In this document: piece after piece, positions 25,524 through 26,798 of the stretch
How the letters are laid out: every line of letters starts with the position of its first letter
Position numbering within the stretch: position 1 is the stretch's first letter
IMG/VR virus record: IMGVR_UViG_3300036770_006434
Coordinates: 1-64,000 of that record
Strand: one strand, 5' to 3'
DNA from: a virus
DNA length: 64,000 nucleotides
The notes under the pieces: generated by a model
Seen by the model: the letters and a program-made list of their open reading frames with translations, nothing else
The model's database searches: none
Told to the model about the DNA's origin: nothing
Made by a program: the position numbers and the translations under genes

Positions 25524-26114
25524 GTTGGGCGAAGAAAAATTACCATCATGAATCCATTCCAGAACATTCGCAATTGGACCCGTAAGGATTTTGATGAGTC
25601 TGACGAAGAAAAGAAGGCCAGAAGAGAGCGGGCGCGTGTTGAGACCGACCACGATCTGCAAAAGCCGGTCCAGCAGCTTTTGTGCGATGTCCACGAAGAG
25701 TCGCTAGCTCCCGTTCCGACGACTAGCGAAGGCGCGGCGATTGTATTCCAGCTCCAACGTTTGATTGGAGCGCAAAAGAGAATGGTTTCGTTGCAGACCG
25801 TAAGCACATTCCAGACGGGACGCACGAATGCTTTAGTGTTTTGGCTCACAGCGATTATTGTTATCCAGACGTTTGTCCTCATCTACCTTACTCTTTACCC
25901 GAGGACCGGACCAAGTCCGGTCTGTCACTGTCACGTAGATGGCGCAGACAAGAAAAGTGCCGATAAAAAGTGACCAAAGAAGCAAGGCCCAGCCCAACAA
26001 GGTGCCAGAGCCAACGGCCACAGCCGTCACGTAGGGGGTAGTTATGAGGTATTCGATCATGATATATGTTATTCTAAAGAACGTTGCCGCTGTGGTCGTG
26101 GCTCATCTTTGACG
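25524..26114 (+). mobile_element. integron-type gene cassette 1
   Basis: Begins at core site GTTGGGC (25524-30); one plus-strand ORF; ends in attC whose R'' GCCCAAC is the exact complement. Confidence 0.8.
25548..25973 (+). CDS. cassette-borne membrane-anchored hypothetical protein (141 aa)
   Basis: ATG 18 nt after the core site; one C-terminal TM (LVFWLTAIIVIQTFVLIYLTL); opposite strand to neighbours. Confidence 0.7.
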   Translation: MNPFQNIRNWTRKDFDESDEEKKARRERARVETDHDLQKPVQQLLCDVHEESLAPVPTTSEGAAIVFQLQRLIGAQKRMVSLQTVSTFQTGRTNALVFWLTAIIVIQTFVLIYLTLYPRTGPSPVCHCHVDGADKKSADKK

Positions 26115-26120
26115 TTGGCC
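25992..26120 (+). repeat. attC site 1
   Basis: GCCCAAC-AAGGT-GCCAGAGC-CA[A]CGGCCACAGC...GCTGTGGTCGTG-GCTCATC-TTTGAC-GTTGGCC; canonical 7-5-8...7-6-7 spacing with extrahelical base. Confidence 0.85.
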
Positions 26121-26356
26121 GAAGAGTGCTTGATGACTTCGCCGTTCCCGTCGCGGACGGACCAGAAGAGGATTTCCAGCGCGTCGAGCTGTTCCTTTTT
26201 CCACCCGATGCGGAGCATCTCAGCCATAATCTGCCCGCAGACAAGAATTCCACGCCGCGTGGGTTTCTTGGCGGCGCGGATGCGTTCCAGTGCTTGCGTA
26301 GCCTCCTCGGCCAACCCGTCGCCAGTGCCAACGCTCGGGACTTGTCCTTTGTTCAT
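26069..26356 (-). CDS. hypothetical protein, antisense within cassette 2
   Basis: Starts in the attC2 loop and stops in the attC1 loop. Confidence 0.6.
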   Translation of the reverse strand: MNKGQVPSVGTGDGLAEEATQALERIRAAKKPTRRGILVCGQIMAEMLRIGWKKEQLDALEILFWSVRDGNGEVIKHSSANVKDEPRPQRQRSLE

Positions 26357-26422
26357 AAATTTTTCCTCCGCTCGCCGCCCTGGGGTTTCTCGCCCGAGCG
26401 CGGCACATCTTTTTCGTTCGGC
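26309..26422 (+). repeat. attC site 2
   Basis: GGCCAAC-CCGTC-GCCAGTGC-CAACGCTCGGG...CCCGAGCGCG-GCACATC-TTTTTC-GTTCGGC; R'' complements the upstream core GTTGGCC. Confidence 0.85.
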
Positions 26423-26784
26423 TTCCGAACGAAACCTTCATGGCTTTCCATATCCAGCGTGAAGGGATGGTGCGGAAAGTTTTCCAAAAGAATGAGACGG
26501 CAGCGGTCGCAGATTCCCTCGTAGTTTTTCACCTCGTTGTGATGTTCCCGGCATCGGGGACATTCCACGAACGCCGGGTTTTCAACTCGGGCCGCCTTCA
26601 TCGCACGATAGTCCGCCTGAATGGCTCGGATGTTGTCGCAGGTCAGAGGCTCCGACGGGAAGGATAGGCGATGATCCCGTGTCTGTGCGGACGTAAGAAA
26701 GCCGAACGAATCGCCAAACACAAGATGCGCGCTGGCACCTTGCAGGGTTGAACTAGAATCTGGGGTGGTGTGCGTCTGTGTCAT
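26353..26784 (-). CDS. hypothetical Zn-finger protein, antisense within cassette 3
   Basis: CPRC...CDRC; ATG inside the attC3 right arm, stop in the attC2 loop overlapping the next ATG (ATGA). Confidence 0.6.
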   Translation of the reverse strand: MTQTHTTPDSSSTLQGASAHLVFGDSFGFLTSAQTRDHRLSFPSEPLTCDNIRAIQADYRAMKAARVENPAFVECPRCREHHNEVKNYEGICDRCRLILLENFPHHPFTLDMESHEGFVRKPNEKDVPRSGEKPQGGERRKNL

Positions 26785-26798
26785 ATCAGGTGTTGGGC
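26701..26798 (+). repeat. attC site 3
   Basis: GCCGAAC-GAATC-GCCAAACA-CA[A]GATGCG...TGCGTCTG-TGTCATA-TCAGGT-GTTGGGC; R'' complements the upstream core GTTCGGC. Confidence 0.75.

Follow-up and report, generated by a model that had tools for sequence, protein, structure and literature searches.

In T4-type phages, small accessory genes lie in hyperplastic regions and are bounded by repeated hairpins that mark recombination points, and the cassette elements of these phages, which consist of a promoter and a stem-loop, recombine by homology. Integron components were described in 21 phages, both temperate and virulent, by Qi et al. (2023, Front Microbiol, PMC9892861); 17 of them were clusters of attC sites lacking an integron integrase (CALINs), and five of six tested phage attC sites recombined with attI1. 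According to a preprint (bioRxiv 10.1101/2022.09.11.507474), the integron integrase IntI also mediates cassette insertion outside att sites in bacterial genomes. Here we describe an array of three integron-type cassettes, between positions 25524 and 26798 of a 64-kb stretch of phage DNA (the window), which is the start of the 190,671-bp IMG/VR virus record IMGVR_UViG_3300036770_006434; this record has direct terminal repeats and is rated 100% complete. Our overall reading, to which we give a probability of roughly 0.78, is that the locus would be a genuine cassette array in a phage without an integrase of its own, built by the IntI of a host.

In comparison to the T4-type hairpin elements, those of the present phage are integron attC sites, which in bacteria are tied to IntI. 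As in the phage CALINs of Qi et al. (PMC9892861), there are at least two attC sites with cassettes, there is no IntI nearby, and a host IntI is proposed. Unlike those CALINs, the array lies in an uncultivated 190-kb phage known here from its sequence, its attC family is of the Opitutaceae type, two of its cassettes have antisense phage-type genes that read into the neighbouring attC site, and there is a natural comparison of an occupied with an empty site at the crossover point between the G and the TT of the core (G/TT). The sedentary chromosomal integron of an Opitutaceae metagenome-assembled genome (MAG; contigs L023 and L019) is alike in the R box, the 5- and 6-nt spacers, the extra top-strand base of the L box, a 17-nt identity and the cargo family of cassette 1. 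Its array has IntI, an attI-like core and uniform attC sites of 97–115 nt at 92–114 bits, whereas the phage sites reach 12–40 bits, have longer loops and stand without IntI and attI. The junctions of the array in the end of a phage gene fit the use of a secondary genomic site rather than attI, as in the preprint, which, unlike the present case, concerns bacterial chromosomes.

Integron cassettes in phages are rare and were described in 2023, and the phenomenon itself is not new. An earlier reading of the window, made from its letters and without database searches (the sequence-only reading), held that integrons are not typical of phages, a view overtaken by the phage attC clusters already published with recombination assays (PMC9892861). 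What is added here is the likely source integron family, a natural pair of empty and occupied sites, and antisense cassettes completed by attC arms.

Identification of the attC Sites

The Opitutaceae MAG encodes IntI (413.5 bits relative to the TIGR02249 cut-off of 265). On contig L023, the order is IntI, an attI-like core and then an attC site whose R'' complements that core, and at least 22 attC sites of this family were found across the contigs of the MAG. Alignment of eight of them gave 37 consensus pairs, 20 with compensatory changes, and the textbook layout of an R box, 5- and 6-nt spacers, and an L box with one extra base. A covariance model (R1) was made from these eight sites only, which come from the IntI-linked array, and the whole window was scanned on both strands (128 kb) with filters off. 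A broader alignment of 14 attC sites was dropped as the basis of a second model because the sites of contig L015 were misaligned. The elements of the array and the four best R1 matches are as follows.

25524 to 25530, plus strand: core site at the left boundary, exactly complementary to the R'' at 25992; contig L009 (described below) joins the left flank straight to the start of cassette 2.
25992 to 26120, plus strand: attC site 1, 129 nt, well preserved, with a bottom strand that folds; R1 rank 1, 39.6 bits, E = 1.8e-8 in the window and 5.3e-8 in the genome.
26309 to 26422, plus strand: probable attC site 2, 114 nt, moderately degenerate; R1 rank 2 (26310 to 26422), 16.1 bits, E = 0.09 in the window and 0.0099 in 7 kb.
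26701 to 26798, plus strand: attC site 3, 98 nt, decayed, assigned on context, and the right boundary of the array; R1 rank 3, 12.0 bits, E = 1.4.
46519 to 46628, plus strand: R1 rank 4, 11.6 bits, E = 1.8.

The three best matches of 128 kb fall within 800 bp on one strand, and the background in the rest of the 190-kb genome was at most 12.3 bits. The strand opposite site 1 reached only 5.6 bits, and therefore the plus strand is the attC top strand. Site 1 is certainly a genuine attC site, and site 2, which scores above every background value in the genome, is probably one. That site 3 is a degenerate attC site rests on context, namely its strand, its position, its geometry and the exact match of its R'' to the unusual R' of site 2. 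Scores above background, by which the sequence-only reading proposed to judge its elements, were thus obtained for sites 1 and 2 but not for site 3.

Sequence Motifs and Folding of the attC Sites

Core sites are located at 25524, 26114, 26416 and 26792, and R'' sites at 25992, 26309 and 26701. In all three cassettes, the R'' is a 7/7 complement of the preceding core and a 5–6/7 complement of its own R', and the 7-5-8...7-6-7 spacing (with 5-nt and 6-nt spacers) is exact in all three sites; the sequence-only reading had reported this spacing and the exact complementarity to the preceding core, and both stand, with the motifs at the positions that it gave. Its description of paired arms was true in part. 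The L core is paired at 5/5 positions in sites 1 and 2, but at 4/5 in site 3, and in sites 1 and 2 the 5-bp L core is followed by an unpaired A and then by only one of three further pairs. In the L'', the extra base is an A, which one site of the reference array also has, and the L box of site 2 has the same form as that of site 1 with a compensatory change from A:T to T:A.

AAC and GTT are found in all six R'' and R' boxes. The full RYYYAAC consensus is present in one R'' only (site 1), and the full GTTRRRY in two cores only (the one at 25524 and the R' of site 3, which are identical 7-mers). Each deviation has its counterpart in the partner box of the adjacent site, and similar deviations occur in the true array of contig L012. 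In the core at 25524, the G belongs to the phage flank and the following six bases open cassette 1. It was also found that 17 nt of attC site 1, through the GTT of its R', are identical to the IntI-adjacent attC site of L023. By their sequence, the phage attC sites are members of the family that chromosomal integrons of Opitutaceae-like bacteria use.

The fold of the site 1 bottom strand includes the R box, leaves the spacers unpaired and has a long stem (z = -1.84). The sequence-only reading had named the folding of the bottom strands into attC hairpins as a test, and in the minimum-energy folds such hairpins were seen for site 1 but not for sites 2 and 3.

A chance arrangement of short inverted 7-mers in coding sequence, with no element present, has to be weighed here. 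Chance, or a coding artefact, was our initial reading, which rested on the weak pairing of the L arms (only 3–5 bases), the ordinary folds of sites 2 and 3, the frequency of relaxed chains, the background level of pairwise similarity and the fact that the sites overlie real minus-strand genes (A and B). When the core is relaxed to GTTNNNN, the 190-kb genome contains 43 start positions (overlapping) of chains of at least three, and so the complementary-chain rule by itself is not beyond chance; the folds of two of the three sites are unremarkable, and the pairwise similarity, marginal between sites 1 and 2, does not exceed background when site 3 is compared with either of them. However, site 1 has an E value of 2e-8 with an independent model, the top three matches of 128 kb are clustered on one strand, and the same elements surround homologs in unrelated contigs, at which point the initial reading was dropped. 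Chance is already refuted for sites 1 and 2, and as an account of the locus we regard it as scarcely credible.

Cassette Boundaries as Recombination Points

The metagenomic contig L009 corresponds to the window minus 25524–26113, cut exactly at the G/TT crossover, such that cassette 1 is missing. It contains a copy of the gene B core (the gene of cassette 2) with 91% identity. In top-strand orientation, the 60 nt of L009 from the core onward match the window from 26114 at 53 positions, and of the 40 nt that precede this core, 26 agree with the window sequence ahead of 25524; in a control with 5,955 GTT-anchored positions, the mean for these 40 nt was 10 and no other position reached 26. The stretch of left flank in common with L009 is promoter-like. 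In the B cassette of L009, the start core and the R'' have changed together, with A/T where the window has G/C, and are still complementary. From the crossover codon on, gene B has a different C-terminal tail in each of its four contexts (the window, L009, L010 and L011). Furthermore, when both phage flanks are joined at the crossover, the 69-aa phage gene to the right of the array obtains the same last residue and stop as gene B in L009.

Contig L010 (positions 1–2175) has at least four successive pairs of complementary core and R'' sites, with four different 7-mers and with all genes antisense; R1 sets attC sites at two of those gene junctions, and one of the genes is a member of phrog_625. 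Taken together, these comparisons show that the cassette boundaries behave, as far as can be read from sequence, as recombination points. Because the rejoined flanks give an ending of the gene B type, the array would appear to occupy a secondary site in the last codons of the 69-aa phage gene, with the left junction as the apparent point of entry for cassettes.

Over both array junctions, six more assemblies of the phage, from other samples, were 99.9–100% identical, which excludes a chimera. Contigs L038–L043 were considered as variant strains and rejected, as the gene calls differed yet the sequence was identical. The comparison of cassette presence and absence among relatives, which the sequence-only reading had called for, yielded one relative without cassette 1 (L009) and six invariant assemblies of the same phage.

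Alternatively, the phage could have acquired the entire array at once from a chromosomal integron of a host, through illegitimate or homologous recombination, and now carry it as an inert passenger, in which case IntI never acted on the phage genome. Routes of this kind were proposed for phage CALINs by Qi et al. (PMC9892861), and the degeneracy of sites 2 and 3, the identity of the array in all assemblies of this phage and the similar antisense arrays of L010, which is possibly bacterial, would all be in keeping with it. In contrast, both array ends lie exactly at G/TT cores, the rejoined flanks restore a sensible end to the 69-aa phage gene, and L009 has the same left flank with a different first cassette at the same nucleotide, which fits site-specific events of one cassette each. 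We consider uptake as a passenger unlikely, and direct action of IntI on the phage genome rather likely.

Search for a Recombinase

Neither IntI (TIGR02249) nor Phage_integrase (PF00589) had a match in all 190,671 bases of the genome, and the controls were positive in 14 genomes. The sequence-only reading had reported no intI in the window, and its absence now extends to the whole genome. With three attC sites within 810 bp and IntI absent genome-wide, the locus is a CALIN. It is not a complete integron, since there is no intI and the left flank, a promoter-like region of the phage, does not resemble the attI region of L023. In the absence of a tyrosine recombinase from the phage, recombination by a host IntI is the simplest reading. 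The suggestion in the sequence-only reading that the phage gains or shuffles genes by means of a host IntI is supported by the empty site in L009, the attC family, the occurrence of the cassette 1 gene family in real arrays and the lack of a phage recombinase, but not in respect of ongoing shuffling, given the six identical assemblies.

Cassette 1 and Its Homologs

25525 to 26114, plus strand: cassette 1, 590 bp, with two convergent overlapping genes and its own attC site; absent from L009.
25548 to 25973, plus strand: cargo gene of cassette 1, 141 aa, with a C-terminal membrane helix; 97 relatives.
25833 to 26060, minus strand: 75-aa membrane protein, antisense, with its start codon in the loop of attC site 1.

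The 141-aa gene runs opposite to all neighbouring phage genes. Its family has 97 relatives at E ≤ 1e-3 with a conserved alignment, and the protein had no match in Pfam, PHROGs, NCBIfam or PADLOC and no Atlas match of at least 0.9. Homologs are found as sense cassettes in the arrays of L012 (five attC sites in 2.2 kb) and L019 (a contig of the Opitutaceae MAG), and a further homolog lies between two attC sites in L015. The N terminus of the 75-aa protein is read from the L'' and R'' arms of attC site 1, and an open reading frame (ORF) that starts in the attC loop is retained in the homologous cassettes of L012 and L015, in the latter with a GGAGG-type ribosome site ahead of it. The stretch between the stop of the plus-strand gene and the R'' is 86% conserved with L012.

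The convergent overlapping pair, a 141-aa protein and a membrane protein of 75–91 aa, is conserved (window 25548–26060, L012 1077–1634, L015 748–1284). This layout recalls toxin–antitoxin or exclusion modules by analogy, with no family match.

Positions 600–1360 of L015, an AT-rich and phage-like contig, hold a GC-richer insert of attC, gene and attC with fully canonical cores, and a phage-type homing endonuclease gene is located at 2019–3038. The outer boxes of the two attC sites complement each other, as do the inner boxes, which would be the expected product of a cassette inserted into an existing attC site. The upstream attC copy of L015 is non-coding yet conserved. At 1548–2146 of L012, a true array, a GAT-type core is followed by an R'' that complements it exactly, so that core variants off GTT propagate within this attC family.

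Antisense Genes of Cassettes 2 and 3

26115 to 26416, plus strand: cassette 2, 302 bp, with the core of gene B in antisense and a 13-nt inverted repeat.
26069 to 26356, minus strand: gene B, 95 aa, phage-type small protein; 15 homologs.
26417 to 26792, plus strand: cassette 3, 376 bp, with the core of gene A in antisense; start core and R'' are exact complements.
26353 to 26784, minus strand: gene A, 143 aa, CxxC...CxxC protein; N- and C-terminal extensions read from attC 3 and attC 2, respectively.

Genes A and B each start within their own attC site and end within the preceding one. The start of gene B falls in the attC 2 loop and its final 15 codons fall within attC 1; the coding score favours the minus strand, and among the 15 homologs the core is conserved and the tails diverge directly past the crossover codon. 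The start of cassette 2 is linked with its R'' by the 13-nt inverted repeat (12/13). The boundaries of cassette 3 lie one to three codons from the conserved protein core of gene A, and its two homologs, of 98 aa, are both without either extension. In L016, a gene B homolog is part of a phage early region of the ordinary kind that has no attC sites, and a gene A homolog in L044 lies in a tight operon with no space for them. A self-contained sense ORF followed by an attC site is the arrangement of cassette 1, but not of the antisense cassettes 2 and 3. A perfect 10-bp hairpin with a 3-nt loop is also present at 26412–26434, within the C-terminal extension of gene A, and holds the R' of attC site 2.

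This arrangement raises the question of whether the attC-like hairpins are mainly elements of phage gene junctions that bring together the stop codon, ribosome site and start codon of adjacent genes and adjust translation or transcription, with a likeness to attC that is ancestral or convergent rather than a mark of present mobility. The stops and starts of consecutive minus-strand genes do lie in the loops of sites 1 and 2, the same layout is seen in L010 and L015, and the arms are translated as protein tails. However, the same family adjoins IntI and forms sense-oriented arrays, the upstream L015 copy is conserved though non-coding, and the cassette-sized indel and the covariation of R' and R'' are signatures of recombination, with which a role at gene junctions is in any case compatible. 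Such an origin for the hairpins seems to us very unlikely.

Genomic Setting and a Second attC Locus

25113 to 25481, minus strand: phage gene left of the array, 122 aa; 25480–25507 is a promoter-like site.
26786 to 26995, minus strand: flanking phage gene, 69 aa, read from the sequence; phrog_2864 match.
45968 to 46628, plus strand: second attC locus, with a short site at 45968–46023, a sense ORF at 46059–46433 and a site at 46519–46628.

The genes that neighbour the array are small and nearly all on the minus strand, and the adjoining matches to phage families are a deoxynucleoside monophosphate (dNMP) kinase, a dNMP phosphatase, phrog_8203 and phrog_2864. The final sense codon and the stop codon of the 69-aa gene come from attC 3. 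The 122-aa protein had no homologs outside the present phage. No DNA relatives were found in the phage collection, and among viral contigs there were no usable relatives of gene A, of the phosphatase gene or of the cassette 1 family. A pattern search with the left junction gave 67 metagenomic and two viral matches, every one of them due to chance, and an Rfam scan of the array region gave nothing relevant.

The second locus, an attC pair of the same family, adjoins a tRNA cluster. Its core at 46017 and R'' at 46519 are exact complements with a GAT-type core, a type also found in the true array of L012, and it is matched by attC site 1 in the L'' core and in the L' arm.

Discussion

On the sequence evidence, the locus very probably represents a genuine three-cassette integron-type array in a phage genome. 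Several observations weigh against the reading that such an array was built by a host IntI. The R1 score of site 3 is at background level, two of the four cores break GTTRRRY, relaxed chains are frequent in the genome, and the minimum-energy bottom-strand folds of sites 2 and 3 are not attC-like and are no better than those of shuffled sequences. Genes A and B span the cassette boundaries, which is unusual for cassettes, and homologs of both also exist as ordinary phage genes (L044 and L016). Contigs L009–L011 may be phage or bacterial, close relatives were not found in the phage or viral collections, and the array does not vary among assemblies of this phage.

The proposed course of events would be as follows. 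In a phage inside a host with an active integron, IntI would fold the bottom strand (the minus strand of the window) of the attC site of a circular cassette, and this attC site would recombine at G/TT with a target in the end of a small phage gene. The left array junction would then have been the entry point of later cassettes. In the resulting orientation, phage transcription would run in the direction of genes A and B, which are antisense in their cassettes, and of the gene for the small membrane protein in cassette 1, and these genes would start in attC loops and be finished by whichever attC site is downstream. By its sequence, site 1 looks functional and site 2 weakened, and site 3 is probably dead.

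A further idea, which we put forward tentatively and think somewhat doubtful, is that the accessory block of this phage lineage may consist of antisense cassettes, in which an ORF starts in the loop of its own attC site and is completed by the attC arm of its neighbour, such that a host IntI could swap protein cores between fixed junctions. If this were true, the lineage would show the transition from ordinary gene to cassette, or from cassette to fixed gene, because the gene A and gene B families also occur without attC sites.

With this array, a large uncultivated phage joins the well-supported cases of integron cassettes, and the likely source integron family can be named. The comparison of the occupied with the empty site argues that IntI acted on phage DNA, a route left open by published work. 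Phages could therefore be users as well as vectors of the cassette pool of sedentary chromosomal integrons, and the antisense cassettes finished by attC arms bear on how cassettes arise.
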